The position numbers and the translations under genes are program-made. The notes below the pieces were generated by a model. That model had not been told where the DNA came from and made no database searches. It saw only the letters and a program-made list of their open reading frames with translations. Below are positions 11,485 through 31,639 of a stretch of DNA of 64,000 bases, piece after piece. Location of the stretch: positions 14,286 to 78,285 of the forward strand of contig JAGNHB010000018.1 in NCBI GenBank assembly GCA_018001935.1, read 5' to 3'. Source of the DNA: Acidobacteriota bacterium. Lineage in GTDB: Bacteria; Acidobacteriota; JAAYUB01. Every line of letters starts with the position of its first letter. The first letter of the stretch is position 1.

Positions 11485-14349
11485 CTACTCCAGCTCCAGG
11501 CCGGGGTAACAGCCCAGGGCGGAGCCGTCCAGCGGGAGGATCCGGAGGTCCCCCGCCAACGGCTGGGTGCTCTCCGCCCTGATCCAGGCCACCTCCGGCG
11601 CTTCCGCCCCGAAGAGGTCCTCCAGGGAGGCCGACAGGACGGCCCCCGCCGGGAGGGTCGCCGCGTGGGCAGCACGTTGCGTCCCGGCGGCGTTGAAGCC
11701 CCGCAGGGTGACCTCCGCGGTGGACGCCGACACGTTGGTGAGCCGGAGCCGGGACACGGAAACCCCGGGTGTGCCCGTGAGCGGGAAGCAGAACTTCTTC
11801 AGACCGCTTTCGAAGGCCTCGAGGCCGTCGAAGCGGAAGGGGGCCGTCCGGGAGACCATGAGTTCGAAGCCCATCATCCGACGGGCGCCGTCCAGCCGGA
11901 ACCAGGCCGCCCCGGGGTAGTGGCCGCCCAGCACGGCCCAGACCTCGCGGGTGAGCTGCTGCCGGCCGTAGAGGCCCACGTAGGCGGTGGAGAGGGGGTT
12001 GCCGTCACGGTCGCGGATGTCCACGGTGCAGGTGTTGCCGGCGTTGTCCAGGTTGGTGAAGGTCACCCCGGTGAACCACTCGGCGTCGTCCGGGACCTCG
12101 TTGAAGACGAGGGTGAAGAGGGCGGAAGCGCCGGCGGTCTCCCCGTCCTTGGCCGACGCGTTGAGCGGGCGCGCCGGCAGCCCCGCGAGCCCCTGGTCGC
12201 CCAGTTTCCCGAAGAGTTCGAAGCCGAGGAGGGGCGTCTCGGCGTGGGCCCGGACGTACCGGATCCGGCCGGGGTCCTCGAGGTCGGCGAAGACCTGTTC
12301 CACCAGGCGGACCGCCTTGCCGTTCCCGGGAAGGAGGACCGACCGGGTGGCCAGTTTCTCGCCGGAGTCGGCGTAGGCGTCCAGGTCGGCCTGGACGGGC
12401 CCCGTGCCGGGGTTGACGAGGGTGATCCCCGTGTAGAAGGCCCCGGACTGTCCCGGGGAGACGAAGACGTAGGGGAAGACCAGGTCCGTGTCCCCGTCCG
12501 TCTCGTCGAGGGGAAGGGTCACCAGGGCCTGCCCGTCGGCGGTCCCGAAGGCCAGCACCCCCGCGAGGGCGGTGCGGGTGGAGATCGTCATCCAGGGGTC
12601 GCGGGCGAGGGTTTCCGGCGTGAAGTCGGCGGCGGCGTCCAGGGTGAACTGCTCGCCGGCCCCCAGACTGTCCAGGGTCCGGGTTTCGGCGGGCTGCCCG
12701 TCGGCCCCGTAGGCGTCGAAGCGGACCGGCCCCCCTACGGCGCCGGTGTTCACCAGGGTCAGCCGGGTCCACCAGCCGGGGGTCCCGGCGAGGTGGGCCA
12801 CCCGGTAGACCCGGTTGACGGTGAGGGTGACGGCGGCGCTGTCGGCGTGCCCGTAGGCGTTGCCGACCCGCACCCAGTAGACGGCCGTCTGCCGGGGCTT
12901 GACCTTGAGGGTGGCGGACGTGGCGCCGGAAACGGGGGTGGAGACGTCGCCCGCGGGGCCCGTGTACCACTGGTAGGTCAGCGGGTTGGTCCCCGTGGCC
13001 GTCACGCTGAGGGTTACCGACTGCCCGAAGCTGACCTCCTGGGAGCCGCTCTGGCTGGTGATGGCGGGCGGGACCGGGGGGGCGCCGCCCTGCTGGACCG
13101 TGTGAATCAGGGTCTGGAGGCCGGCGTTGAGACGAACGGAGCCCGTCCGGGGAACCGGGTCGTTGTTGGGGTCCACGGCGAACTGGACGGTCCCGTTGCC
13201 CGAACCGCTGTTGCCGCTGGTGATGTGGACCCAGGGGCTGTTGGTCATGGCGGTCCAGGTGCACCCAACGCCCGCGCTCACCGTGAAGCTCCCCGTCCCC
13301 CCGGTCCACCCCGCCGCGGACTGGGCGGGGTTCATCTGGTAGGTGCAGTTGGGGTCCACGTCGTAGACCAGGTAGCACACCTCGCACGCCACGATGGCGG
13401 AGGTGTACTTGATCCGCATGTAGCCCCCCTCGCCCCAGCCGGCTCCCCAGCTGTTCCGGAGGTAGAAGACGCCCTCGGCGTCGTTCCAGCCCACGAGGGC
13501 GATGGCGTGGTTGGTGGGGGTGTCGTAGCACGGGTTGGAGGAGCAGGCGGTGTTGGTGTCCTCGTAGATGCCGCCGCTGTACGCCTGGAAGGCACTCCCG
13601 GCGTAGACGGCGGCGTCCACCACGCCGTAGGTCAGGATGGCGGTCTTGATGGCGTCCACGTCGCCGCAGGGGACACGGTACCAGCCGGAGAACCGCGTCA
13701 CGGGGTCGCTCCAGTGCGTGCAGCTGCCGGGGTCGTTCTGCTGGTAGGGGAAGAGGGACTCGTCGCAGACGCCGTAGTCCACCAGGGCCTGAAGTTCACT
13801 GTAGGTGTAGTCCGCGCCGCTGCAGCCGTAGAAGTGGCTGCGGTACTCGGACAGGCGGCCCAGGCACCAGATGATGTAGGACTCGGAGAAGTCGGCGCAG
13901 TTGGCGTCGAAGCGCCCCGTGGCGAAGTTGTAGACCCCTTCCGCGGCGGCGTTGGCGCCGAAGGCGTAGCAGGAGCCGCAGCCGCCCTGGTTGCGGACGG
14001 GGCCGATGTAGGCGTGGCCGTTGACGTTCCGCCAGTCGAACTGGGCGGGGAGGCTCAGCTTGCCCAGCACGCCCTGCAGCGGGCCGGCGTCGGATGGCGC
14101 GGCCGGGTCGGCGGGCGTCGCCGGGGGCCGGCGGCTGAGGAACGCCCGCTTCTGTTCCGCCGGCATGTCGTAGACCCAGTTCCGGTCCACGGTGAACCGG
14201 TAGCCGTTGGCCTCGATCTTGGACCGGAGGGCGTCGAGGCTGTCGTCGTCGGCGAAGGGGAGCTTCGGCGACCCCTGGGCGGCGAGCGGGGCGGCCAGGG
14301 ACACGAGGAGGAGGAACCAAACGGCGGGGCGGGGGAAACTGGGCTTCAC
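11485..14349 (-). CDS. secreted papain-family (C1A) cysteine peptidase with Ig-like domain and about 480-aa C-terminal repeat module
   Basis: catalytic motifs QGGCGSCYAFG, NHAIALVGW, NSWGAGWGEGGYMRI; GTG start at 14349 with GGAG RBS and signal peptide VKPSFPRPAVWFLLLVSLAAPLAAQG; the ORF continues upstream only as 5' read-through. Confidence 0.85.
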   Translation of the reverse strand: MKPSFPRPAVWFLLLVSLAAPLAAQGSPKLPFADDDSLDALRSKIEANGYRFTVDRNWVYDMPAEQKRAFLSRRPPATPADPAAPSDAGPLQGVLGKLSLPAQFDWRNVNGHAYIGPVRNQGGCGSCYAFGANAAAEGVYNFATGRFDANCADFSESYIIWCLGRLSEYRSHFYGCSGADYTYSELQALVDYGVCDESLFPYQQNDPGSCTHWSDPVTRFSGWYRVPCGDVDAIKTAILTYGVVDAAVYAGSAFQAYSGGIYEDTNTACSSNPCYDTPTNHAIALVGWNDAEGVFYLRNSWGAGWGEGGYMRIKYTSAIVACEVCYLVYDVDPNCTYQMNPAQSAAGWTGGTGSFTVSAGVGCTWTAMTNSPWVHITSGNSGSGNGTVQFAVDPNNDPVPRTGSVRLNAGLQTLIHTVQQGGAPPVPPAITSQSGSQEVSFGQSVTLSVTATGTNPLTYQWYTGPAGDVSTPVSGATSATLKVKPRQTAVYWVRVGNAYGHADSAAVTLTVNRVYRVAHLAGTPGWWTRLTLVNTGAVGGPVRFDAYGADGQPAETRTLDSLGAGEQFTLDAAADFTPETLARDPWMTISTRTALAGVLAFGTADGQALVTLPLDETDGDTDLVFPYVFVSPGQSGAFYTGITLVNPGTGPVQADLDAYADSGEKLATRSVLLPGNGKAVRLVEQVFADLEDPGRIRYVRAHAETPLLGFELFGKLGDQGLAGLPARPLNASAKDGETAGASALFTLVFNEVPDDAEWFTGVTFTNLDNAGNTCTVDIRDRDGNPLSTAYVGLYGRQQLTREVWAVLGGHYPGAAWFRLDGARRMMGFELMVSRTAPFRFDGLEAFESGLKKFCFPLTGTPGVSVSRLRLTNVSASTAEVTLRGFNAAGTQRAAHAATLPAGAVLSASLEDLFGAEAPEVAWIRAESTQPLAGDLRILPLDGSALGCYPGLELE

Positions 14350-14580
14350 GGGATCACTCCGTCGGGGGATTTGGCGCCCGGGTGGGCAACCGTGCATTCT
14401 ACAACACCGGGTTCCGGGGTGGTGAGGCAAAAGCGGGGTGAACCGAAAAAACGGGCGAACGCCTGTGCGAGCTTGGCGCCAAGACCAGGCGGACCCGGAT
14501 CTGTCCCGCCAAGGAGCCAGGCTCGCAACGCAACGAAGGGAAGGGGGTTGCAAAAATGTCCATCGATCCGAAATTCGCCC

Positions 14581-14609
14581 TTGACCGGGGCGGGAAACGG
14601 GGGTATCTT
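14581..14609 (+). promoter_or_regulatory. candidate sigma70-type promoter (TTGACC, 17-nt spacer, TATCTT) for the 14654 gene
   Basis: cTTGACCggggcgggaaacgggggTATCTTcc, about 45 nt upstream of the AGGAGG RBS and ATG. Confidence 0.45.
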
Positions 14610-14653
14610 CCTTTTGAAAAAAACACGCAGGTTTCATCCTGTGACAGGAGGTT

Positions 14654-15406
14654 GTGATGAGGAAGCTTGTATTGGCCCTGTTCGTCGCCCTTTGCCTGAC
14701 GGCCTTCGTGGTGGGCATCACCCCCGAGGAGAAGCGCCAGTTCGACCTGGAGCACAGCGGTCACGGTTCCTCCCACCAGGTCGGGCCGGGGCTCCTGGGC
14801 GCCCACGCCCTGATCTTCTCCGAGGAATTCGAGGGCGCGGTCCCGCCGGCCGGCTGGACCATGGTCAACAACGCGGGGGGCGCGGTGGTCTGGAACACCA
14901 ACACCTCCTTCAGCGATGGAAACTTTACCGGCGGGGCGGGCAATTGCGCCGAGGCCTGCAGCGACTGTGTCGGGACCGCCGAGTTCGACGTCGAACTCCG
15001 GACCCCCGTCATCAACTGCACGGGCGTCACCAACGCCACCCTGACCTTCAACGCCAACTACCAGAACTTTGCCAACTACGATTTCTTCGCGGTGGACGTG
15101 AGCAACGACGGCGGGACCACCTGGAACAACGTCCTCTCCTGGAACGAGGACCACGGCGGTTTCGGGGCCCTGCCCGGCGTCCCCGTCAACCTGAACATCT
15201 CGGCCTACGCCGACAACCAGCCCAACGTCATGATCCGCTTCCACTACTGGGACCCCAACACCGCGGACTGGGACTGGTACGTGCAGGTGGACAGCGTGGC
15301 CGTCAACGGCGACCAGGCCCCCATCCCCACGGTGTCGCCCGCGGGCCTTCTCGGCCTGGTGGCGGTGCTGGCGGGCGCGGGCTTCCTGGTCTGGCGCCGG
15401 CTGTAA
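14654..15406 (+). CDS. secreted protein with PEP-CTERM-like C-terminal sorting signal
   Basis: N-terminal signal peptide; C-terminus PIPTVSPAGLLGLVAVLAGAGFLVWRRL (P-rich motif, TM helix, RR tail); AGGAGG RBS. Confidence 0.7.
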   Translation: MMRKLVLALFVALCLTAFVVGITPEEKRQFDLEHSGHGSSHQVGPGLLGAHALIFSEEFEGAVPPAGWTMVNNAGGAVVWNTNTSFSDGNFTGGAGNCAEACSDCVGTAEFDVELRTPVINCTGVTNATLTFNANYQNFANYDFFAVDVSNDGGTTWNNVLSWNEDHGGFGALPGVPVNLNISAYADNQPNVMIRFHYWDPNTADWDWYVQVDSVAVNGDQAPIPTVSPAGLLGLVAVLAGAGFLVWRRL

Positions 15407-15437
15407 CGAACGCTATTTGCAATGCTGCCGACCGCTC

Positions 15438-15480
15438 CGTCCCCAGCCGGGGACGGAGCGATCTGTTTTTCCGGGGCAGT
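15438..15480 (+). terminator. rho-independent terminator-like hairpin
   Basis: gctccgtcccc-agcc-ggggacggagc perfect 11-bp stem followed by gatctgttttt. Confidence 0.6.
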
Positions 15481-15660
15481 CAGAGCCGCGCGCGTAAGCA
15501 AGCGGCCATTTCTCCCTCAGAGCCGCGCGCGTAAGCAAGCGGCCATTTTCCCCTCAGAGCCGCGCGCGTGAGCAAGCGGCCATTTTACCTTCGTAAGCAA
15601 GCGTAAGAATTTCCATGATTTACCGCTCCCTAACGGTCGCGGCTCTGACTGTTTCCCGGA
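15470..15660. repeat. three tandem copies of an approximately 42-bp unit (cagagccgcgcgcgtaagcaagcggccatttt...) closed by an inverted arm (ggtcgcggctctg)
   Basis: read directly; the unit core GCCGCGCGCGTAAGCAAGCGG also occurs at 37012 and 52911. Confidence 0.8.
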
Positions 15661-15678
15661 GAGTTGAAAGCCTCCCGA

Positions 15679-17076
15679 TCAGGGGACCTCGCCCGAGGCG
15701 GCAGCGGGGTTTCCATTCCGGGGCGGGGCCGGCGCCCACGGGACCATGACGGAGACGGGGCCGTGGAAGGTGCGGGCCCCGGTGTCCTCGACGTCCTCGA
15801 GGCGGTACCAGTAACGGGTGCGGGGGAAAACGCCCGGGTCCGTGAAGGTGTACGCGGCCCCGCTGATCTCGGACTGTCCCCGGCCCGGGATGAGGGTCTC
15901 CGTGATCCGGGCGTAGGGCCCTTCTTCGGATTCCGCCCGCCAGAGGTGAAAGCCCGCGTTCCGGATCTCGGTTTCGGTGACCCAGTCCAGCCGGACCCCA
16001 CCCTGGCACGGCAGCGCCTCGAAGGAAACCAGTTCGACCAACAGCGGGGTGAGGTCCCGGGCCAGGCAGATGCGAAGGTCACTGCCGGAACCCGTCGGCG
16101 ACCCGCCGTAATACATCCGAAGGGACCCGTCTGGCGCGAGAATCACGTCCGGGGTGTAGGCCCTGCCCGCCCGGTAGGTCGGTGCACTGCCCCCCACGGC
16201 GAAGAGGGGGTTGTTGGCGTCCTTCGTCCAGGTGAGGCCGTCCGGGGACGAGGCGTAGCCGATCCCCTCGTGCGAGGCGGACTGGCCGCCGGAGTACCAG
16301 AGGTGGTAGCCGTTCTCGTCGCGGAAGACGGTGCCGAAGGTGGCGTAGGCGGCGTCCCACGACCCCGACCCGCCGTAGGGGAGAACCGCGCTCGTCGAGT
16401 AGGCGGTCCAGTCGATCCCGTCGCTGGAGTAGGCGAGGCCAAGGCTCTCCGTACCGCCGGAGGTCCCATCGTAGTACATCACGAAGCGGTAGTCCCAAGG
16501 GTCGGTTCCGCTGTTGGACGCGCCGGGTTGGTAGAGCACGCAGGCGGGACCGTAGCTGCCGCGGTTCCAGCCCGTCCCGGACATACCGGTGATGAGGGGG
16601 TTCGACGAACTCTGCGTGACGGCCTGGTCGTCGTCCCAGTCGATGCCGTCGCTCGATTGGGCGGTGTGGAGGTCGTCGAGGGTGTAGGTCATGTTGGACG
16701 TCCAGTACCAGACCCGATAGGGCGCTCCGCCGGTGATCCCGAACCCGTCGGCATCGTAGAGGACTTTGGCGTGCCCGGGGTTGGTCAGGCCCGTGGCGGA
16801 AACGGACGAACCCCAAGCCAGGCCGTCGGAGGACGTGACCATCCGGAGGGTGCCGCTCGCCCCGTACCACATCCGCCAGGTCGCCCCCCCCGACACGCCG
16901 AATGCCTCGTAATCGTAAAGAACGGAGGGGTAGTCCGCCCGCGAACCCGGGTCGACGAGCGGGTTGGCGGTGTAGTCCTCCCAGGCCGTGTAGTCGTGGT
17001 CCGCCCGGAGCGAGCCCACCAGGCAGAGGAAGGCGAGAACGAAGGCTGCCGACCGGATTTCACGCTGGGTTTTCAC
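15679..17076 (-). CDS. secreted BNR/Asp-box repeat beta-propeller protein (sialidase/glycosyl-hydrolase-like) with C-terminal beta-sandwich domain
   Basis: repeated Asp-box-like SSDGIDW, YSSDGIDWT, SSPDGLTWTK; GTG start at 17076 with GGAGG RBS and signal peptide. Confidence 0.7.
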   Translation of the reverse strand: MKTQREIRSAAFVLAFLCLVGSLRADHDYTAWEDYTANPLVDPGSRADYPSVLYDYEAFGVSGGATWRMWYGASGTLRMVTSSDGLAWGSSVSATGLTNPGHAKVLYDADGFGITGGAPYRVWYWTSNMTYTLDDLHTAQSSDGIDWDDDQAVTQSSSNPLITGMSGTGWNRGSYGPACVLYQPGASNSGTDPWDYRFVMYYDGTSGGTESLGLAYSSDGIDWTAYSTSAVLPYGGSGSWDAAYATFGTVFRDENGYHLWYSGGQSASHEGIGYASSPDGLTWTKDANNPLFAVGGSAPTYRAGRAYTPDVILAPDGSLRMYYGGSPTGSGSDLRICLARDLTPLLVELVSFEALPCQGGVRLDWVTETEIRNAGFHLWRAESEEGPYARITETLIPGRGQSEISGAAYTFTDPGVFPRTRYWYRLEDVEDTGARTFHGPVSVMVPWAPAPPRNGNPAAASGEVP

Positions 17077-17137
17077 GGGTGAAACGACCTCCGAGATTCG
17101 TGATGATGAAGGTTGATGCCCTCGAAAAAAGTCCTTT

Positions 17138-17223
17138 TCTCTCACGGAGGCACGGAGAGATGCAAATCGTATTTGATAGAATCAGCAATCCTTATATTTC
17201 TTCTCCGTGCCTTCGTGAGATCG
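17138..17223. promoter_or_regulatory. inverted pair of the conserved motif TCTCCGTGCCTCCGTGAGAGATGCAAATCG, 60-145 nt upstream of the 17076 gene
   Basis: the reverse copy at 17138-17169 is 30/32 identical to 37182-37213; a diverged forward copy lies at 17199-17223. Confidence 0.5.
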
Positions 17224-17508
17224 AAATCCGGACTTTTTCCGAGATCATCGCTCTGCGAAACCGCCGAAGTCACCCCCTTCAAAGCCCCGGCAGTGGACAA
17301 GCTGATCCCATTATAGGGGGGGGTGGATTGAAGTCAAGCCGAAATACGGTTAACTTATTGACGGATCTTGTGGATAATAGCGTTGGGCTTTCTTCGTCCA
17401 TTTACTGTGAAGCCCGAAACTCCCGGAACGATGCGGCCTGTTCCACCCGCGGCGGAAAGGGTGACGGCAACCCCGGGACCGCTCCAGGGCGATCCCGGGG
17501 CGCCGCCT

Positions 17509-19128
17509 TCACGGCAGGCCGAGGTAACTGACCAGGCGCGACTGGTCGACCGCTTCGAGGAACACGTCCCCGAAGATGGGGTGGTCGCTGGTGACCATCA
17601 TCCATACGGCGTCGTTCAGCATGCCCGGGAGGACCGTGACCATGTCTTCGGAACGGCTGCCGCCGGCGAGGAGGAACCCCGCCGGGGAGTCGTAGGTGCC
17701 GACAAGGCTCCCATCCGATGCGAAGGCCTTGACGGTATAAGTGGCGTCAAAGGCTGTCCGGTTGGTGAGGCGCAGCCAGGTCCGCCAGTTCGCAGTGCAG
17801 CGGACCACCGGGAAGAACAGAGCCTTCCGGGACTTGTCGGCTGCCGGCAGGCCGTCGAAGCGGAAGGTGGAGGCGGTTCCGCCGCGGGTCAGGTAGAGTT
17901 CGAAGCCGAGGGCCGGATCGGGCGATGAGACGGTCAGGTAATCGGCCTCGGGGTGGACCGTTCCGTCGAAGACGCTCCAGACTTCCCGGGTGTACTGCTC
18001 CATGGGGTGGATGAGGCGATCCGCCGAGGCCAGGAGGGCGCCGCCCGTGTCCCGCAATTCCGCGTGAAGCGTCTGGTCCGTGGTGGAGAGGTTGCAGAAG
18101 GTGACGCCGGTGTACCAGTTGGTGTTGTCCGGGATTTCGTTGAAGAGGAGTGCCGTGGTGACCCGGTCGGGAGCGCTCTCGAGGCTGCCCCCGCCGGGAA
18201 CCCCTGCGGTCAGGACGCCGCCGGCCCGGTTGAAGGCCGGGAGGCCGGCCAGGCCCGGGCTGCCGAAGTTCCCGAAGAGTTCGAAACCGATGAGGTTCCG
18301 GTCGGAGGCGACGTCCACCAGACGGATGGTGGAGGGGTCCGCCACGCCCGGGAAGCACTCGTTGATGAGACGGACATACTTGCCCATGGCGGGGATGGGC
18401 ACGCTCACGGTGCTCAGGAGGACGCCGGGCTCGCTGTAGGCCTTCAGCTCCACCGTCGCCGCCGCGGGCTTGGTGTTGATGAGGGTGAGCCCCGTGTACC
18501 ACCCCAGGGCCAGCACCACGTAGGGGAAAGTCAGGGCACGGCTGGAGCCGGCCACCATCGGCATGACCACCTGGGAGAGCCCGTCCGTGGTCCCGAACTC
18601 CAGGGCGCCGCGGAGGGGGGCTTCCGAGGACACGGTGATCCAGAGGTCCTGCTGGTACACCGCGGGGTCGAAGAGGGTGTTCACGTCGCGCTGCAGGTGG
18701 GCCCCGGGGGCCAGGGCCGGGGACTTGTACGTCTGGAGCGGTGTGCCCGAGGGGTGGTAGGCGGTGAAGACCACGGGCTCGGCGCCGGCGCCGGTGTTGG
18801 TCACCTGGAGTACCGTCCACCAGGTGGCGGAGCTGGCCGAGTGGGAGGCGTAGAGGAGGGAAGGCGCCGGGGTCAGGAAGCCCCCGGTGAGCTTGAAGGC
18901 GCCGCCGGCGGAAGGGCCGGCGTCGGCCTGGCCGATGACGCCGTCGAGGCCGAAGGGGCGGGCCAGGTCGTACGCGAAGCCCCCCCCGCCGTCCACGGTG
19001 TTCCAGCTCAGGTCGTAGGGCCCGCCGGTCTGGGCCGCGGCGGGGAGCAGCGCGGCGAGGACGAGGGCCGACAGCAGGCCCGGCCGGATTCTGAACGGGT
19101 GTTTCCACATGGCGCACCCCCCGCTCAC
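17509..19128 (-). CDS. secreted repeat-domain protein, paralogous to the C-terminal module of the C1 peptidase
   Basis: signal peptide; shared motifs LIGFELFGNFGSPGLAGLPA, LLFNEIPDNTNWYTGVTF, REVWSVF, LGFELYLTRGG...FRFDGL; GTG start at 19128 overlaps the upstream stop (alternative ATG at 19110). Confidence 0.7.
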   Translation of the reverse strand: MSGGCAMWKHPFRIRPGLLSALVLAALLPAAAQTGGPYDLSWNTVDGGGGFAYDLARPFGLDGVIGQADAGPSAGGAFKLTGGFLTPAPSLLYASHSASSATWWTVLQVTNTGAGAEPVVFTAYHPSGTPLQTYKSPALAPGAHLQRDVNTLFDPAVYQQDLWITVSSEAPLRGALEFGTTDGLSQVVMPMVAGSSRALTFPYVVLALGWYTGLTLINTKPAAATVELKAYSEPGVLLSTVSVPIPAMGKYVRLINECFPGVADPSTIRLVDVASDRNLIGFELFGNFGSPGLAGLPAFNRAGGVLTAGVPGGGSLESAPDRVTTALLFNEIPDNTNWYTGVTFCNLSTTDQTLHAELRDTGGALLASADRLIHPMEQYTREVWSVFDGTVHPEADYLTVSSPDPALGFELYLTRGGTASTFRFDGLPAADKSRKALFFPVVRCTANWRTWLRLTNRTAFDATYTVKAFASDGSLVGTYDSPAGFLLAGGSRSEDMVTVLPGMLNDAVWMMVTSDHPIFGDVFLEAVDQSRLVSYLGLP

Positions 19129-20171
19129 TTGAAGACTTCCTGCTTGATGACCAGGACGTTGAAGGTGATGCCGTCGTGCATGGACGCCAGGTCCTCGTTG
19201 AAGATCGTCCAGCGGTCCCGGAGGGGGTTGTACCAGACCCCGACCACGTGGTTGTGGTACGCGGCGCCCGTGATGAAGTTGCGGGTCACGAAGACCAGGG
19301 CGTACGGGTCGCCGTTGAGGAGCGGGTGATTGATTTCCGTGAAGTTGTCGTTGACATTGGATGTGGTGGTCAGGTGGGTGAACGCCATCCGGTGGTCCCC
19401 CGTGGTCCGGATGGCGCCGTTGCGAACCTCCAGGGCGGTCCCGCCGCCCTCCCCGCGGTAGACGGCGCGGACACCGGCCCCGTCGTACCCGTTCTGTACG
19501 GTTTCACCGTGGACCCCGACCCCGCCGCCGCCGGAGGCGTTGCTGGCGAAGCCGGCGGTCCCGACGGCGTGGGAGAGCGCGCCGCTGTTGCCGATGACGG
19601 CGTACCCCTCGTCGACGGCCGCGTTGTAAGCCTGTACGGTGGCACAGGCCTCCGGGCCGAAGGTCCCGCCGGAACCGGCGCCGCGCGCGGACACCGCCCG
19701 ACCGCAGGTGGTGGCGTTGTTCTCGACGTAGAGAGCGGAGGCGGTCCGGATTCCCCGGATCTCGGCGCCGCAGCGCAGGCCGAGGGCGTAGGGGGCGGCG
19801 GTGAGTAGCTGGCGCGGGGTCAGGTCGGTGTAGGCCCCGGCGTCGGCCCCGGGCCGGACGGAGATTTGAAGGTAGAGAATCTGCCCGTTGAAGATGCCTT
19901 CCCCGAAGTCCAGGAGGGTGCTGAACAGGCCGTTGGCCACCACCAGGTCGTTGACGGTGACGGTGGAGCCCACCTGGGAGCTTGTCGAGAGGCCTTCGAA
20001 GAGCTTGAACTCGAAGTCGTAGGCCCCGTTGGCGGGGAGGCCGTCGTCCGCCAGGCGGCCCTGGTAGGTGATGCCGGTGCCCACGGGAGCGGGTGCGAGG
20101 CGGAGTTCCCCCGCGGCCAGGCACCCGAAGGCGGTGAAAAGGACCCACAGCAGGCAGAGTGCTCGATACAT
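19125..20171 (-). CDS. secreted hypothetical protein with phage-tail-fibre-like N-terminal region
   Basis: signal peptide MYRALCLLWVLFTAFGCLAAG; N-terminal pattern ITYQGRLADDGLPANGAYDFEFKLF...VVANGLFSTLLDFG, common in tail-fibre-like secreted proteins. Confidence 0.65.
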   Translation of the reverse strand: MYRALCLLWVLFTAFGCLAAGELRLAPAPVGTGITYQGRLADDGLPANGAYDFEFKLFEGLSTSSQVGSTVTVNDLVVANGLFSTLLDFGEGIFNGQILYLQISVRPGADAGAYTDLTPRQLLTAAPYALGLRCGAEIRGIRTASALYVENNATTCGRAVSARGAGSGGTFGPEACATVQAYNAAVDEGYAVIGNSGALSHAVGTAGFASNASGGGGVGVHGETVQNGYDGAGVRAVYRGEGGGTALEVRNGAIRTTGDHRMAFTHLTTTSNVNDNFTEINHPLLNGDPYALVFVTRNFITGAAYHNHVVGVWYNPLRDRWTIFNEDLASMHDGITFNVLVIKQEVFK

Positions 20172-20299
20172 GGCAACCTCCTGGATCAGGTATTTTTCGG
20201 ATCTGTGACCGGGGATGCCCCGGTTTTCGGCGTCGATTCACGAAGTTGACAACATTATACACAGGACACGGCGGGGGGCGCAACCGGAAAGGCACTCCA

Positions 20300-20400
20300 G
20301 GGAGGGTGCCCGACACGGAAATGGAACCACGAAATACACGGAAGACACGAAAGGGAAAAGAACCACGAACCACACCAACCACACGAACCGCCTCCGCGGT
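20300..20400. repeat. CACGAAC/ACCACACGAAC short tandem repeat block
   Basis: ggaaccacgaaatacacggaagacacgaaagggaaaagaaccacgaaccacaccaaccacacgaacc; related blocks at 46560-46640 and 63240-63300. Confidence 0.7.
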
Positions 20401-20619
20401 CCCGGAGGGACCGAGGACATCAGTCGGTGGGAACACCGCCTCCGGCGGAGCACCCACCGGCCAGGCTCCCCCATCCCTTCGGGATGCCGCCGACCGCTCC
20501 CGATTTCTTGCTCATCCTGCCCAAGATCTTGCTTTGAAGGTACTGCGCTTTCTTCCGGGACTTCGCCCGGAAAAGTGGCCTCGGCAGGCAACCGGAATCG
20601 ACAACAGGTTGGCAAGAAC

Positions 20620-20680
20620 GCAGCCGCTGAAGCGCCTACCAGCCTTCAGCCTAACAGCCTTCAGCCTATCTCGCCTCCCC
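20620..20680. repeat. CCTTCAGCCTAACAG heptamer-pair repeat overlapping the stop of the 20666 gene
   Basis: cgcctaccagccttcagcctaacagccttcagcctatctcgcc; the TAG stop is inside cagcctatc. Confidence 0.8.
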
Positions 20681-21496
20681 CGCGAGGACCACGTCGGCGG
20701 GAAGGGCGCCGGAAGAAAGGGCCGTGGCCAGGACCCGGGCGTCCAGGAGGGACGGCAACCCGGAGATCATCCCCTGGTCGGTTATCCGGTCGCGGATGAC
20801 GGGGACGGAGAGGGCCCGGCCGTCCAGGACGATGGCCAGCCCCCGGCCGAGGCTCTTCGAGGTGGCGTCCCCGAAGATTCTCGCACCGGCAGGGTCCAGC
20901 GTGAACAGGATGACCGGCCGGCCGTAGGCGTTCTCCGGGGTATCGACCCGGGCGTCCTTCAGGTGCTCCCCGACGAGGACCGGCAGGGATTCCACCAGGA
21001 CGAACAGCCGCTCGGCCTCCCTCCCCTCGCCGACGAAGGGGACCGCCACGTAGCCGGCCGGGTGCTTTCCCTTGAACCGGGCCCGCAACTCGGCTTCCGG
21101 GAGCGGGCCCGGCGCCTCCGGGTGGGCGAGGTGAAACGACAGCAGGGCGCGGGTCGTCAGGAGACGTTGCACCGCCTCCCGGTCGACGGGGGCGTGGAGA
21201 AACACCCGCAGCCGATCCCGGCTTCCGGGTGCCCGGAAGACCTGGGCCTGCTGGCCGTATCGTTCCAGGCGGGACCTCAGGACGGCGCAGGTCCGGTCGA
21301 GGGTGCGGGTGACGGCTTCGGCGGAAAGGGCCGGGTCGAGCCTTACCTCCAGTTCGAGGCGGACCGACGCCTTTTTCCCGCCGGTCGTCGCCTGCGGCGT
21401 GCCGGGCGCTTCGCCGCCGTGCTCGGCTAGAGCCCCGGCCCACAGGGTCGCGCCGAAGAGGATCGCCGCCAATCCATGGAGCCCGTTTCTGTTCAT
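20666..21496 (-). CDS. periplasmic protein resembling the SecD P1-head domain, with no SecD/SecF membrane domain
   Basis: signal peptide MNRNGLHGLAAILFGATLWAGALA; C-terminal LAIVLDGRALSVPVIRDRITDQGMISGLP...SGALPADVVL matches the SecD periplasmic head consensus; GGGGAGG RBS; the ORF continues upstream only as read-through. Confidence 0.6.
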   Translation of the reverse strand: MNRNGLHGLAAILFGATLWAGALAEHGGEAPGTPQATTGGKKASVRLELEVRLDPALSAEAVTRTLDRTCAVLRSRLERYGQQAQVFRAPGSRDRLRVFLHAPVDREAVQRLLTTRALLSFHLAHPEAPGPLPEAELRARFKGKHPAGYVAVPFVGEGREAERLFVLVESLPVLVGEHLKDARVDTPENAYGRPVILFTLDPAGARIFGDATSKSLGRGLAIVLDGRALSVPVIRDRITDQGMISGLPSLLDARVLATALSSGALPADVVLAGEAR

Positions 21497-21556
21497 CCCA
21501 CGCCTCCCCACCCGTCGGCGGACCTTGCCTTGATGTCGTCTCTCATCATAGCACAT

Positions 21557-21572
21557 CCGTATTCTGCGGTTC
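21557..21572. repeat. solo copy of the CCGCAGAATACG inverted-repeat motif overlapping the stop of the 21571 gene
   Basis: ccgtattctgcggttcagtg is the reverse complement of the motif flanking the GxxExxY gene. Confidence 0.6.
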
Positions 21573-23403
21573 AGTGAAGGATGGCGGCCAGGTCGGCGGC
21601 GGTGACGCGGCCGTCGCCGTCGGCGTCGCCGCCGGAGCCGCCGGGGGGCAGGTCGGGGACGTTCCCGGCCAGGAAGGCGGACAGAAGGACGAGGTCGGCG
21701 GCCGTGCGCCGGCCGTCGCCGTCCACGTCCCCGGGGTGGGGTTGCGACACCCGCAGGCGGGACGGGCGGGCCGCGTCCTGGTAGACGGTGTTTACGGCCG
21801 GCCACGCGGGCCCCGCGACGTACAGGGGCCCGCCGTCGTTGCGGTTCAGATCGAAGTGCGGGTAGTCGGCGGAGCAGACCGCGATCCGCAGGCGGTGACC
21901 CGGCAGGACCGTCAGCGCCAGGTCCTGGAGCGTCACCTCCACCTCGTAAACCGCGCCCGGCGCCATCAGGTGCTCCGCCGTGAAGCCGTCCCGGAAGCGC
22001 AGGCGCCGGATCCCCTGGGCCAGGATGATCGACCGCCCGTCGGGGTGGACATCGGTGAGCCGGACGCAGAGGTCGGTGTCCGTCCGGTCGGAGGAGAAGA
22101 ACAGGCCGGCTTTCACGCTGCCGTTGATCCGGAGGGGGACGGCCAGGGACGGCGTCGACCAGGTTCGCACGTCCGGCCGGCTCTCCACCGGTCCCAGGTC
22201 CTGGGGGCCCACCGGGAGGTCCGGGGCGAAGGGGTCGAATCGGGACCCGCCCAGGGCCGGGGTCGGGTCGGCGGGGTCGTAGGTGAAACGCTCCGGGGCG
22301 CCGTCCGACGGCGGGGGCGACCCGGTCAGCGTCCCGCCGGGTTGGAGGTAGAGGGCCGTCTCCACCCGCGCACGGTCGGACCAGCTCTCGCCGGCGACCC
22401 AGGCGTCGGCCCCCACCTGGTAGAAGGTGACGGGCGGCTCCGCGACCCACCCGTTGGCGACGTTCCGCAAATGGTAGTCCCAGAAGCGCACGGTTTTCGC
22501 CTCCGCCACGCCGGCGGCTGCGGGGAAGGTCAGAATTCCCTGCTCCGCCCGGTCCACCTCCCCGTGGAGCCAGGGGCCGAAGAGGAGGCGGTGCTGTTCC
22601 CGGGCCGGCGCCGCGCTGCCTTCCCGGAGGTCGCGGAAGCAGCGGAGGACGTCGTCGGGGAAGTGGTCGAACCAGCCGCCGATGACGTAGCAGGGGACGG
22701 CGATCTCCGCCGCCATGTCGGAATTGGCTTCCATGAGCGCCCAGAAGGCGTCCCGCATCGGGTGGGCGAGGATGAAGCCGGCGTCCGTCAGGCCGAGCTT
22801 TTCCAGGCTCTCCACGTGCTCTTTCCGGTAGTCGCCGCCGAAGTAGTAATCGGAGTACTTGAACAGGAAATCCTTGACCCGCGGGACGCAGCAGACCAGG
22901 TGGGGCGGGCGGTGCCGGGCGGTCTGGAACTGGATGTAGCCCAGGGCGGAGGAGCCCCAGGTCCCCACGCGGCCGTCGCACCAGGGTTGGGCGGCGACCC
23001 ACTCCACGGCGTCGTAGCCGTCAAGCCCGCGGTCGTAGCCGGGGACGGCGGCGGCCGAGGACCCGTAGAAGCCCCGCCAGTCCAGCACCACGTAGTGGTA
23101 GTCCGCCGAGAGGGGGAACATCCCGCCGCTCTGGGGCGGAAAACCCGCCATGGCCCGGTAGAAGTTCTTGTTGTAGGGCGTTTGGATCAGGATCACCGGC
23201 CGGGGGACGGGGGTGGCCCCGTCGAAGGTGTGGACGTCCGCCGCCAGGGCCTTCCCGTCCCGGGTGGGAATGGACACGGCGGTCCAGGTGAGCCCGCGCG
23301 GGGAGGAGGGCCCCGCGCCGGCGCCCGTCCCGGCCGGCAGCGCCCCGCCGGCGACGCACAGGGAAAACAGCAGCACCCGGGTGAAGCGGTGTCGCGATAA
23401 CAA
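21571..23403 (-). CDS. CocE/NonD family (S15 X-Pro dipeptidyl-peptidase-like) hydrolase with C-terminal dockerin
   Basis: VILIQTPYNKN and GRVGTWGSSALGYIQ; C-terminal DVDGDGRRTAADLVLLSAFLAGN plus DADGDGRVTAADLAAIL dockerin repeats; TTG start at 23403 with GGGAGG RBS and signal peptide. Confidence 0.75.
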   Translation of the reverse strand: MLSRHRFTRVLLFSLCVAGGALPAGTGAGAGPSSPRGLTWTAVSIPTRDGKALAADVHTFDGATPVPRPVILIQTPYNKNFYRAMAGFPPQSGGMFPLSADYHYVVLDWRGFYGSSAAAVPGYDRGLDGYDAVEWVAAQPWCDGRVGTWGSSALGYIQFQTARHRPPHLVCCVPRVKDFLFKYSDYYFGGDYRKEHVESLEKLGLTDAGFILAHPMRDAFWALMEANSDMAAEIAVPCYVIGGWFDHFPDDVLRCFRDLREGSAAPAREQHRLLFGPWLHGEVDRAEQGILTFPAAAGVAEAKTVRFWDYHLRNVANGWVAEPPVTFYQVGADAWVAGESWSDRARVETALYLQPGGTLTGSPPPSDGAPERFTYDPADPTPALGGSRFDPFAPDLPVGPQDLGPVESRPDVRTWSTPSLAVPLRINGSVKAGLFFSSDRTDTDLCVRLTDVHPDGRSIILAQGIRRLRFRDGFTAEHLMAPGAVYEVEVTLQDLALTVLPGHRLRIAVCSADYPHFDLNRNDGGPLYVAGPAWPAVNTVYQDAARPSRLRVSQPHPGDVDGDGRRTAADLVLLSAFLAGNVPDLPPGGSGGDADGDGRVTAADLAAILH

Positions 23404-23540: not shown

Positions 23541-23672
23541 GAAAAGGACAAAAGGACCAAAAGGACATAAAGGACGGCACGGAGGGCAAACGGGTTACCC
23601 TGCGGACGCCCCTGCCCCCACCTGCTGTTATGAAGTCCTTTAAGTCCTTTAAGTCCTTCAAGTCCTTCCCGG
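23541..23672. repeat. inverted pair of AAAGGAC heptamer arrays with an approximately 56-nt loop
   Basis: ggaaaaggacaaaaggaccaaaaggacataaaggacgg ... gtcctttaagtcctttaagtcctttaagtccttcaagtcc. Confidence 0.85.
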
Positions 23673-23766
23673 GCGAAACGGTCCCGTGGGGGGAAGGCGG
23701 GAAAGCCACCGGCCTGGCCGCGTCGCGGCTGCAGGAACAGAAGCCGCCCCCCTCCCTCGGCCGCCG

Positions 23767-23845
23767 CCCCGATCGCCGCCGCCCATCGTCGCCCCCCGAT
23801 CGCCGCCGCCCATCGTCGCCCCCCCCGATCGCCGCCGCCCGCTGA
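23767..23845. repeat. three tandem copies of an approximately 28-bp unit CCCGATCGCCGCCGCCCATCGTCGCCCC
   Basis: read directly in the 5' region of the 23915 gene. Confidence 0.85.
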
Positions 23846-26900: not shown

Positions 26901-26924
26901 CCTTCATTTTTCAGAGGTGAGTTG

Positions 26925-27998
26925 ATGAGATTATCCGAGATCGCCCGTCTGACGGGTTGCGAACACGTGGGGGAGGACTGCGGGATTGTCGGCGTTTCGG
27001 ACCTGAAGCAGCCGGAACCGGGCACCATCGCCTACGCCGACAGCACCGTCAACGTCCGCCGGCTCCTGGCGAGCCCCGTGGCGGCGCTCCTGGTGGGGCC
27101 CGGCAGCGCCTGCGAGGGGAAACCCCACCTGCGGGCGGCCAACCCCCGGCTGGCCCTGGCGCGCTTGCTGGGGTGCTTCCAGCGACCGTCGAGCCTGCGG
27201 AAGGAGGTCTACCCCGGCGCCTACGTCGAGGAGGGCGCGAAAATCGGGCGGGACGTCGCCATCCTCCCCTTCGCCTGCGTGATGGCGGGCGCCGAGATCG
27301 GCGACGGGAGCGAGCTTCACGCCGGCGTGTACGTCGGCCCAAACGCCCGGGTGGGGAAGGGGTGCGTCCTCAAGGCGGGGGTGGTCGTCGGCGACGGCGT
27401 GGTCCTGGGGGACCGGGTGATCGCCCACCCCAACGCCGTCATCGGCGGCGACGGCTTCGGCTACGCCCCGGACGGCGCGACCCTCGTCAAGATCCCCCAG
27501 ATCGGCACCATCGAGGTGGGGGACGACGCGGAGATCGGCGCCTGCACCACCATCGACCGGGCCACCCTGGGCCGGACCGTGATCGGGAAGGGGACCAAGA
27601 TCGACAACCTGGTGCAGATCGGCCACAACGTCACCGTGGGGGAGAACACCGTCATCATCTCCCAGGTGGGGATCGCGGGGAGCACCCGCATCGGGAACTC
27701 CTGCATCCTGGCGGGGCAGGCGGGGATCACCGACCACGCCGTCATCGAGGACCGGGTCGTCATCGGCGCCATGGCGGGGATCGAGTCGAAGCACGTCAAG
27801 GCCGGGAGCGTCCTCCTGGGGGCCCCCGCCCGGGACCACATGGAGACGAAGCGCATCTTCGCCTGCTTCCCGCGCCTGCCGGACCTGCTGAAACGGGTGG
27901 CGGCCCTGGAGCAGAAATTGCGGGAATTGGAGGGGGAGAGTTCCGGGCGAACCGACCTGGAATCCCCGGCGGCGGATCGGGAACATCGAGTTTTATGA
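26925..27998 (+). CDS. lpxD: UDP-3-O-(3-hydroxyacyl)glucosamine N-acyltransferase
   Basis: N-terminal [11 protein letters not shown]...[17 protein letters not shown] plus left-handed beta-helix hexapeptide repeats; GAGGTG RBS before ATG at 26925. Confidence 0.85.
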
Positions 27999-29106: not shown

Positions 29107-31572
29107 TCACTCGTACCGCAGGGCGGCCAGGGGGTCGATGCGGGTGGCGCGGAAGGCGGGGATGTAGCCCGCCAGGAGCCCCACCAGGGCCAGGATGACC
29201 GGGACCGCGACGAACGTGGCGGGGTCGGTGGCGGGGATCCCGAAGAGCATGCTCTCCAGGACGCGGGTCAGGGCGAGCGCACCCGCCAGTCCGAGAACGA
29301 GCCCCAGGGCGATGAGCAGGCCGGCCTGCCCGAGGATGAGCCGGAGGATATCGGCCCCCCGGGCGCCCAGGGCGATGCGGACGCCCATCTCGTGGGTCCG
29401 CTGGGCCACCGAGTACGACATCACGCCGTAGATCCCCACCGCGGAGAGCAGCAGGGCGAGCCCCGCGAAGACCGAGAGGAGCATCATGGAGAAGCGCTGG
29501 GACGCCACCACCTCCGACAGCCGGTCTTCCATCAGGCGGACGTCGGACAGGGCGAGTTCGGGGTCGAGCCGTTTCACTACGGCACGGATCTCGGGGAGGA
29601 ACGTCAGCGGGTCGACGTCGGAGGCCACCACGATCCGCTGGGAGCGGAGGAAGTCGCCGACGGGGAACTCCAGCCAGTCGTCCTGTTCCTGGGCGTAGGG
29701 AGAGTAGGAGCGGGGCTTCGGCTGCAGGTGAAGGGGGCCGTCCTTGACGTCCGCCACCGTCCCTACCACCGTGAGCCACTCCTTTCCCCAGCGAATCCGC
29801 TTCCCGAGCGGGTCCTGCGACGGCCAGTACGCCCGGGCCATGGACTCGCTCACCACGGCCACCGGAACTTGCCCCGCCCGGTCGGCCTCCGTGAAGACAC
29901 GGCCGCGGCGGAGCGGGATCTGCATGGCCTCGAAGTAATCCCCCTGGACCCAGGTCTGGGTGGCGGAGAGGGGGCCCTCCCCCTGGGTCGAATGACCTTC
30001 GACCTCTATGGCGTGCACTTCGCCGATTTCCAGGGGGACGGAGGAAGCGGCGGCCGCCTTGCGGACGCCCGGCAGTTCAGCGGTCCTGGCCAGGACCTGG
30101 TCGTAGAGGTTTCGGATCCTGGGGGCCTTGTCATAGGCATTGTGGGGGAGGGTGAGGGTGAAGGTGAGCACCCGGCGGGCCTTGAAGCCGGGGTCGGTGT
30201 CCAGCAGCCGGAGGAAGCTCCGGACGAGCAGCCCCGCCCCGGTGAGCAGGACCAGCGCCAGGGCCACCTGGACCACCACGAATGCCGATTGGAGCCGGCG
30301 CCGGCCGCGGGAGGCCCCGCCGCTCCGCCCGCCCTCGGCCAGGGCCTCCTGGAAGCTGGTCCGGGAGGCCATGAGGCCCGGGGCCAGGCCGAAAACCAGG
30401 GTGGTCAGGAGGGAGATCCCCAGGGTGTAGAGGAGGACGGTCCCGTCGATGCCGATCTCCTGGGCGCGGGGGAGCCCCTCGGGGACGAGGGAGAGGAACG
30501 CGTCCTTCCCAACGGCGGCCAGGAGGACCCCCAGGGCGCCGCCCAGGACGGAGAGGACCAGCCCTTCCGTCAGCATCTGGCGGACCAGCCTCGCGGGGCT
30601 CGCGCCGAGGGCCCCCCGGATGGCGATTTCCTTGCGGCGGGCCGCGGCGCGGGCCAGGAGCAGGTTCGCCACGTTGGCGCACCCGATCAGCAGGACCAGG
30701 GCCACGGCGGCGAGGAGGATGAACAGGGGGGTCCGGACGTCGCCCACCACCACGGCCTGGAGGGGTTCCACGGACAGGGCGACCCCCGGGAAGACTTCCC
30801 GCAATTTGGCCGGGTAGCTCTCGTCGATCCGCTTCGCCAGGGCGGCGGTTTCCTCCCGGGCGCGTTCCAGCGAGACGCCGGGCTTCAGGCGCCCCACGAC
30901 GCTGTTGTTGAACATGGATCCCTGGGATTCGAATTCCAGGGACGTGAAGGCGATGGGGAAGAACAGTTCCGCGGGCTCGCCGTTGTAAGGGAGACCCTTC
31001 AGGGGAAACTGGACTCCCTCGGGGAGCACTCCCACCACCACGGCGGTGTGCCGGTTCAGGCGGATGGTTTTCCCGACGAGGGCCGGATCGGCGCCGAACC
31101 GCCGCTTCCACAAGCCGTACGACAAGATCACCGCCCCTTCGCCCGGCCGGTCCTCCTCGGCTTGGAACGAACGTCCCCGGACCGGGTTGATCCCCAGCAT
31201 CGGGAAGAGGTTCACCGAGACGCGCGCCCCTTTCACCCGTTCCGGGACCCCGCCCCCGTCGAGATCCACGGTGACGCACTGGAACGCGGCCGTTTCCTCG
31301 AAGCAGGTCTGTTGTTCCTGGAACAGCCGGTAATCGGGCGCGGAGAAGGGGAGTACCGGGAGGTCGGCCTTGGGGATCCCCTCGTTGACGAGGACCAGTC
31401 GCTCGGCGCCGCGAAAAGGGAGCGGCCGGAGCAGGACCGCGTGGACGATGCTGAAGATCACCGTGTTGGCGGCGATCCCCAGCGCGAGGGTGAGGAGGGC
31501 CGCGCCGGCGAAGACGCGGTCCTTCATCAGCATCCGGAAGCCGTATCGAAGGTCTTTGAGCAGCGTGTTCAT
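29107..31572 (-). CDS. ABC transporter permease with duplicated FtsX domain and MacB periplasmic core (ADOP family)
   Basis: 821 aa; two FtsX 4-TM bundles each preceded by a periplasmic MacB_PCD-like domain. Confidence 0.85.
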   Translation of the reverse strand: MNTLLKDLRYGFRMLMKDRVFAGAALLTLALGIAANTVIFSIVHAVLLRPLPFRGAERLVLVNEGIPKADLPVLPFSAPDYRLFQEQQTCFEETAAFQCVTVDLDGGGVPERVKGARVSVNLFPMLGINPVRGRSFQAEEDRPGEGAVILSYGLWKRRFGADPALVGKTIRLNRHTAVVVGVLPEGVQFPLKGLPYNGEPAELFFPIAFTSLEFESQGSMFNNSVVGRLKPGVSLERAREETAALAKRIDESYPAKLREVFPGVALSVEPLQAVVVGDVRTPLFILLAAVALVLLIGCANVANLLLARAAARRKEIAIRGALGASPARLVRQMLTEGLVLSVLGGALGVLLAAVGKDAFLSLVPEGLPRAQEIGIDGTVLLYTLGISLLTTLVFGLAPGLMASRTSFQEALAEGGRSGGASRGRRRLQSAFVVVQVALALVLLTGAGLLVRSFLRLLDTDPGFKARRVLTFTLTLPHNAYDKAPRIRNLYDQVLARTAELPGVRKAAAASSVPLEIGEVHAIEVEGHSTQGEGPLSATQTWVQGDYFEAMQIPLRRGRVFTEADRAGQVPVAVVSESMARAYWPSQDPLGKRIRWGKEWLTVVGTVADVKDGPLHLQPKPRSYSPYAQEQDDWLEFPVGDFLRSQRIVVASDVDPLTFLPEIRAVVKRLDPELALSDVRLMEDRLSEVVASQRFSMMLLSVFAGLALLLSAVGIYGVMSYSVAQRTHEMGVRIALGARGADILRLILGQAGLLIALGLVLGLAGALALTRVLESMLFGIPATDPATFVAVPVILALVGLLAGYIPAFRATRIDPLAALRYE

Positions 31573-31639
31573 GGGATTCCCCTTGATTTCAGTGTTCGGC
31601 GATTCGGTGGCGCGAGAACGAAGTCAGGAGTCAGGAGGA

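Follow-up and report, generated by a model that had tools for sequence, protein, structure and literature searches.

Results

The gene analyzed here lies on the minus strand of a 64-kb stretch of acidobacterial DNA, the whole of which we call the window. It occupies positions 20666–21496 including its stop codon (coding sequence 20669–21496), and its product is 276 aa long. A sequence-only reading of the window had quoted an ORF of this length containing LAIVLDGRALSVPVIRDRITDQGMISGLP...SGALPADVVL, and the translation agrees with the quoted protein. Taken mechanically, the minus-strand ORF that ends at 20666 has 778 codons and begins with a GTG at 23002, and toward its upstream end it overlaps a gene for an S15 peptidase (21574–23403) that is read in another frame. 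The ATG at 21494–21496, rather than this GTG, is well supported by the sequence as the true start, because a Shine–Dalgarno-like GGAGG read directly from the sequence (21503–21507, minus strand) stands 6 nt upstream of it, because the N-terminal pattern MNR.G is common to the protein and its homologue P0002, and because genes called independently on two Logan contigs encode the same 276-aa product. NCBI lists an identical protein under the name “hypothetical protein KA419_09225 [Acidobacteria bacterium],” and the GC3 of the gene (0.88) is typical for coding frames in the window.

Upstream of the gene, 74 nt away on the same strand, is the S15 gene (21574–23403), whose product Pfam identifies as a secreted, dockerin-bearing X-Pro dipeptidyl-peptidase of family S15. 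A type I dockerin in an acidobacterial MAG suggests that a cohesin-type scaffold exists somewhere. Both genes belong to a same-strand run of genes for exported proteins (11485–23403, minus), in which Pfam analysis identified a papain-type C1 peptidase of 1091 aa that also has BACON and Ig domains, proteins of 488 and 539 aa without a family, a DUF7452 protein, the protein described here, and the S15–dockerin protein. Tandem repeats occupy positions 23542–23840, between the S15 gene and a divergent molybdopterin-dehydrogenase gene (27 bp in 2.8 copies, the 9-bp unit AAGTCCTTT in 3.9 copies, and 17 bp in 1.9 copies). On the 3' side, a non-coding gap of 494 bp (20172–20665, minus) contains no noteworthy ORF or Rfam family, and neither a terminator nor a promoter could be identified convincingly. 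At 20634–20668 the sequence GCCTAACAGCCTTCA, 15 bp long, is directly repeated in 2.3 copies that adjoin the stop codon of the gene and overlap it, and 9-bp repeats are found farther into the gap, at 20328–20389.

The protein begins with a segment (residues 1–24, MNRNGLHGLAAILFGATLWAGALA; 21425–21496, minus) that, by sequence and hydrophobicity scan, is either a signal peptide or an anchor left uncleaved at the N terminus. Its parts are a basic n-region, a hydrophobic core of 17 residues, and an A-L-A motif, with no lipobox Cys; read by eye, the export-signal pattern is MNRNGLH, then GLAAILFGATLWAGALA, then ALA/EH. The N terminus could thus be a Sec signal peptide of the SPase I type, cleaved between ALA and EH, or it could remain as an anchor; aligned with canonical SecD fragments, its hydrophobic segment sits at the position of SecD TM1. 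Residues 1–69 contain no Cys at all, so the lipoprotein lipobox pattern [LVI][ASTVI][GAS]C is absent. Next comes a flexible linker rich in Pro, Gly, and Thr (residues 25–42, EHGGEAPGTPQATTGGKK; 21371–21424, minus), consistent with pLDDT values below 50 for residues 5–36 in an AF2 model. This linker of ~18 residues stands in place of the canonical LGLDLxGG (Sec_GG) junction, and its counterpart in P0002 is longer and alike in composition.

The remainder of the chain corresponds to P1, the first periplasmic domain of SecD. The N-terminal part of the base subdomain (residues 43–125; 21122–21370, minus) is modeled by AF2 with pLDDT above 90 and has the order strand–helix–strand–strand–helix–strand; the canonical base motif R.R.D..GV.EP.I is degraded in it. 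The head subdomain and its connection follow (residues 126–267; 20696–21121, minus), with the Pfam SecDF_P1_head match at residues 163–267. The head carries the LAIVLDG..S.PVI...I...G.I.G....A..LA..L.SGALP motifs, with Pro (GLP) in place of its conserved Phe (G.F). A last β-strand (residues 268–276, ..VVLAGEAR; 20669–20695, minus), placed by alignment and modeled by AF2 as strand 268–275, returns to the base, and the stop codon (20666–20668, minus) falls at the boundary between P1 and TM2.

Profile, structure, and fold searches agree on the identity of this domain. The Pfam SecDF_P1_head model (PF22599) matches with E = 1.1e-24 (86.9 bits versus a gathering cutoff of 27), covering positions 10–114 of its 114. 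The SecD_1st model (PF21760) reaches only 15.5 bits over residues 67–124, below its cutoff of 27; the base fold is present despite this weak score, as judged by the AF2 model and by superposition of the whole P1 on 3AQO. The TIGR01129 secD model aligns residues 48–271 with positions 16–232 of 397 (E = 1.2e-28), and its score of 100.4 bits is below the cutoff of 244.4 since nothing in the protein matches the membrane half of the model. The best PDB sequence match is 3AQO, the isolated P1 of Thermus thermophilus SecDF (E = 4e-18, residues 65–271), followed by full-length SecDF; the alignment to 3AQP starts at about residue 47/48. The AF2 model, built from a 75-sequence alignment, has a mean pLDDT of 88, with values above 90 for residues 40–276 and below 50, indicating disorder, for residues 5–36. 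Foldseek against the PDB at E ≤ 1e-5 returned SecDF only (5YHF, 3AQO, 5XAP, 5XAN, 3AQP, 5XAM, and 5MG3), with E of ~1e-18 and a TM-score, normalized by the length of 3AQO_C, of 0.78; the matches after these had E > 0.01.

These data confirm that the protein holds a complete P1, base and head, at residues ~44–276. The similarity to the SecD P1 head that had been noticed from the sequence is therefore real, but the description of a head alone is too narrow, since the homology spans the whole of P1. The same reading had called the protein a soluble paralog with a signal peptide; the export-type pattern is visible at the N terminus, and the protein may be soluble or membrane-anchored, its N terminus being either cleaved or an anchor. 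Neither a PF02355 match in Pfam nor a hydrophobic segment after P1 in the hydrophobicity scan was found, and the SecD/SecF core is absent in sequence, profile, and fold searches alike, as had been claimed. The protein is not a SecD: it has no membrane core and no adjacent or fused SecF partner, and it scores below the family threshold. That it is an intact, stand-alone homologue of SecD P1 we regard as practically certain.

When the window protein, P0002 (68% identity), and P0003 (34% identity) are aligned with canonical SecD fragments, their ends differ by only a few residues. This common end point immediately precedes the E-E-R-x-V-G-P-S-L-G motif through which canonical SecD enters TM2. Searches of the 64-kb window by tblastn with three SecD fragments and five full-length SecD or SecDF proteins matched only the P1 ORF and gave no remnant of a SecD core, in the downstream gap or elsewhere; SecF-like regions were likewise absent from the 64 kb when the SecDF fusions P0009, P0028, P0037, and P0041 were used. 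The gene is thus not a broken secD, because the ORF ends at the P1/TM2 boundary, no core remnant is present in the 64 kb, and P0002 ends alike. Within the window, the disrupted secD that the sequence-only reading had offered as the alternative is ruled out by this shared end point and by the lack of membrane-core debris. Comparison with P0002 gives dN = 0.20, dS = 0.51, and dN/dS = 0.38, and the gene is a coding sequence under purifying but not strong selection, this ratio indicating moderate constraint.

A HMMER search of 1.84 billion representative sequences gave 5463 matches at E ≤ 1e-3, none of which, besides the query itself, scored better than 1e-30. The best 150 matches, together with earlier ones, were classed by the end of the P1 match, by later hydrophobic segments, and by the VGPSLG motif. 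The classed set comprises ~79 canonical SecD or SecDF proteins, ~49 proteins that end at most 25 residues after P1, and ~16 in which P1 is followed by a single C-terminal TM helix, the latter bearing an Arg-rich tail after the helix; short forms number ~65 (~40%) among the best 150 of 5463 representative matches. Most of the ~49 short proteins bear a signal peptide of their own, and a lipobox is present in at least 13–18 (P0003, P0013, P0024, P0035, P0060, P0063, P0087, P0129, and others). Some of the ~49, those with an LGLDLxGG N terminus, are probably fragments of canonical SecD at contig ends. P0016, P0049, P0101, and P0110, with this N terminus or a trailing VGPSLG, are probably such pieces and were given no weight as evidence. 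Six short forms (P0003, P0156, P0129, P0060, P0008, and P0032) are complete genes with unrelated flanks, on contigs that for the first four measure 592, 100, 102, and 176 kb, respectively.

The short forms fall into more than one family. A profile of the P0003-type lipoproteins retrieves 94 clusters (at 90% identity), all of at most 302 aa and none with the SecD_SecF domain PF02355; several are on contigs of 0.15–2.5 Mb, and all score at least 238 bits, versus at most 224 for the first canonical SecD in the list. A distinct family has the order signal peptide–P1–single C-terminal TM–Arg-rich tail (P0008, P0012, P0014, P0026, P0038, P0044, P0061, P0074, and P0386; loci L012 and L015). On an 8.4-Mb contig, the P0386 gene directly follows a Band_7/flotillin gene and a gene for a 321-aa protein without assignment, and it precedes a CHAT protease gene. 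Simple clustering by identity places the window protein in a small group of its own with P0002 and P0129. The P0003 family is not nearer to it than canonical SecD is, and its best match overall is P0007, a canonical SecD of 534 aa, at 37% identity. On this basis, the short forms probably arose more than once. The lineage of the window protein is tiny, consisting of itself, P0002, and perhaps P0129, and no close relative was found in 185,579 species-representative genomes (two scans) or in JGI metagenome contigs (one scan). The window protein is one small lineage among many motor-less P1 proteins.

JGI/IMG gives most P1-only proteins the name “preprotein translocase subunit SecD” or else “protein-export membrane protein SecD,” despite their lack of the membrane domain, and NCBI labels them “hypothetical protein.” Neither Pfam nor NCBIfam contains a dedicated P1-only model, and the NCBIfam matches are to SecD and SecDF models only, all below their cutoffs. 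A full-text search of the literature returned papers on full-length SecDF and no description of P1-only proteins. The P1 domain itself is known; the P1-only architecture is not described in the literature searched.

The breadth of this set bears on whether the window gene could be a functionless leftover of a secD duplication or truncation, now decaying. The only moderate constraint (dN/dS of 0.38), the very small lineage, and the degraded base motifs would all be expected of such a gene. Against these stand the clean domain boundary, an export signal and Shine–Dalgarno sequence of its own, an end point identical to that of a homologue that has diverged by 32%, a fold predicted with high confidence, the absence of membrane-core debris from the window, and the occurrence of the same architecture in dozens of independent lineages. 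We therefore consider decay very improbable.

P1 also occurs as a module in other architectures, each known from a single representative and read from the protein sequence. P0078 (675 aa) joins a Ser/Thr kinase (Pkinase, 3e-39) through a TM segment to a complete P1 (SecD_1st, 2e-11; P1_head, 7e-29), and here P1 appears to be the extracytoplasmic sensor domain of the kinase. P1 lies C-terminal to an RDD membrane domain in P0051, and in P0057, a lipoprotein of 674 aa, it is found at the end of the chain after an N-terminal extension of 440 aa. P0081 and P0088 each have two P1 heads in tandem.

Neighborhoods give less uniform information. Neighbors differ across the seven short-form loci examined, and no conserved operon partner was found among them. 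The S15–P1 gene order is common to loci L001 and L004, and S15 is the only neighbor shared with the closest homologue; on the P0002 contigs, S15 and P1 are followed by an S9 peptidase. An M20 peptidase lies downstream of P0008. The window (26901–27995, plus) and the P0156 locus L007 (11734–12762) each encode an LpxD-like hexapeptide acyltransferase at most a few kilobases from their P1-only gene, and MacB/FtsX permeases are encoded near the window gene (29110–31623) and near P0060. Both families are abundant, and their recurrence, at two loci each, is probably due to chance.

Column conservation was assessed for 73 canonical P1 sequences and, separately, for 57 from short forms, both sets selected by similarity to the query; in the head motifs (query positions 176–267) it is equal in the two sets. 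The conserved head columns are G176, A182, F198, F208, T212, LAIVLD 220–225, S230, P232, I234, I238, G242, I244, G246, A253, L260, G263, L265, and P266. The base motif R.R.D..GV.EP.I...TA (positions 74–117), in contrast, is conserved in canonical SecD only and is relaxed in the short forms. A relaxed base with a kept head fits a domain that has no coupling partners (the TM core and SecF P4) and retains the activity of its head. The short forms also differ in their tethering devices, which include a lipobox, an N-terminal hydrophobic segment with a flexible linker (as in the window protein), and a C-terminal TM helix with a basic tail. The existence of at least three distinct routes to tethering suggests that closeness to the membrane surface matters for these proteins and that P1 works there.

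Discussion

The periplasmic region of SecDF has been reported to contact an unfolded protein that mimics a precursor, and its movements are thought to pull the chain from SecYEG (PMC5974789). The window protein would be exported through Sec and would then consist of P1 only, a ferredoxin-like base subdomain with a hinged head subdomain, joined by a flexible linker to a signal peptide or anchor. Because TM2–6 of SecD, all of SecF, and the proton pathway are missing, it would have no PMF-driven power stroke. It could instead act as a passive, membrane-proximal binder of unfolded chains that leave SecYEG or cross the periplasm, that is, as a holdase or as a ratchet that prevents backsliding, and its clients may be chiefly the many secreted hydrolases encoded nearby. 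Three observations argue for such a passive holdase or ratchet for unfolded exported polypeptides: the head keeps the constraints of real SecD, the periplasmic region of SecDF contacts unfolded precursor, and the short forms are tethered to the membrane. We infer substrate binding, the details of localization, and any link to Sec, and we favor this reading tentatively, giving it somewhat less than an even chance of being correct.

Two further possibilities can be set against this one. First, SecF P4 and the TM core are the normal packing partners of the P1 base, and a free P1 might use the same subdomain to bind SecDF, SecYEG–YidC, BAM, or periplasmic chaperones, so that the protein would be a docking or regulatory subunit that modulates or extends the holo-translocon. 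The periplasmic domains of SecDF do take part in contacts within the holo-translocon and between HTL and BAM (PMC8669966), and membrane tethering would keep short forms near the translocon. This model seems unlikely, however, because the base motifs kept in canonical SecD are the very ones relaxed in the short forms, the reverse of what a docking surface would predict, and because no sec gene is found nearby in any locus examined.

Second, P1 may have been repurposed as a binding module apart from export, either as a sensor of ligands or peptides or as a partner that presents substrates to adjacent peptidases. The S15 gene lies only 74 nt upstream on the same strand, an order kept in the 68%-identical homologue, where an S9 peptidase is found downstream; P0008 has its M20 peptidase downstream; and in P0078 a Ser/Thr kinase carries P1, apparently as its sensor domain. 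Nevertheless, there are no peptidase neighbors at the P0003, P0156, P0129, P0060, P0032, and P0386 loci, synteny at 68% identity may be mere inheritance, and the head keeps the positions conserved in true SecD. A role linked to peptidases is thus a rival that we rank below the holdase reading and judge improbable.

The holdase reading can be extended from the window protein to the whole set. Motor-less, tethered P1 proteins could be widespread and unrecognized extracytoplasmic modules for binding unfolded proteins, the stand-alone forms acting as energy-independent holdases or ratchets at the Sec exit and the kinase fusions sensing stress in secretion or envelope folding. We regard this broader proposal as speculative and its correctness as doubtful. 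If it were true, the P1 head would be an autonomous substrate-binding unit that could be dissected without the SecDF motor.

How the P1 head of SecDF engages translocating chains is hard to study because the head sits on a PMF-driven motor of 12 TM segments. Natural P1-only proteins with kept head positions suggest that P1 may be active by itself, and they offer small soluble models for tests of substrate binding. The kinase–P1 and RDD–P1 fusions hint at a role in sensing. At a more practical level, the “SecD” label on P1-only proteins can mislead inference of Sec content, and automated counts of SecD may be inflated. The domain is familiar, the lineage of the window protein is tiny, and its function is proposed by inference; the populous set of motor-less P1 proteins is nonetheless unexpected and should be experimentally useful to Sec specialists.

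Several known systems invite comparison. PpiD/YfgM are membrane-anchored periplasmic chaperones at the Sec exit, and Skp and SurA are soluble holdases. They resemble the role proposed here, energy-free binding of unfolded chains near the inner membrane, only by analogy of function; there is no kinship in sequence or fold, the fold search having returned SecDF only. SecDF paralogues, such as the Vibrio SecDF2 that is regulated by VemP (PMC11470409), resemble the window gene in being a second secD-derived gene, a housekeeping copy being presumed in the genome of the latter. They are, however, full-length motors with 12 TM segments, whereas the window protein has no membrane core. Closer in layout are the P1-only lipoproteins of Pyrinomonadaceae-type Acidobacteriota (the P0003 family), which come from the same phylum, consist of an export signal and P1, end at the P1/TM2 boundary, and are 255–270 aa long. 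Even so, they are only 25–34% identical to the window protein and form a separate similarity cluster, and they have a lipobox Cys where it has none. Finally, relative to T. thermophilus SecDF, the window protein lacks TM2–12, P4, and the Asp and Arg residues of the proton pathway, and thus would have no PMF-coupled movement; its N terminus is a signal peptide or anchor with a disordered linker in place of the TM1 and LGLDLxGG of SecDF; and its base motifs have diverged, as the SecD_1st score of 15.5 bits reflects. What it shares with the P1 of that protein (3AQO; full length, 3AQP, 5YHF, and 5XAP) is the fold of two subdomains, base and head, and the motifs of the head.
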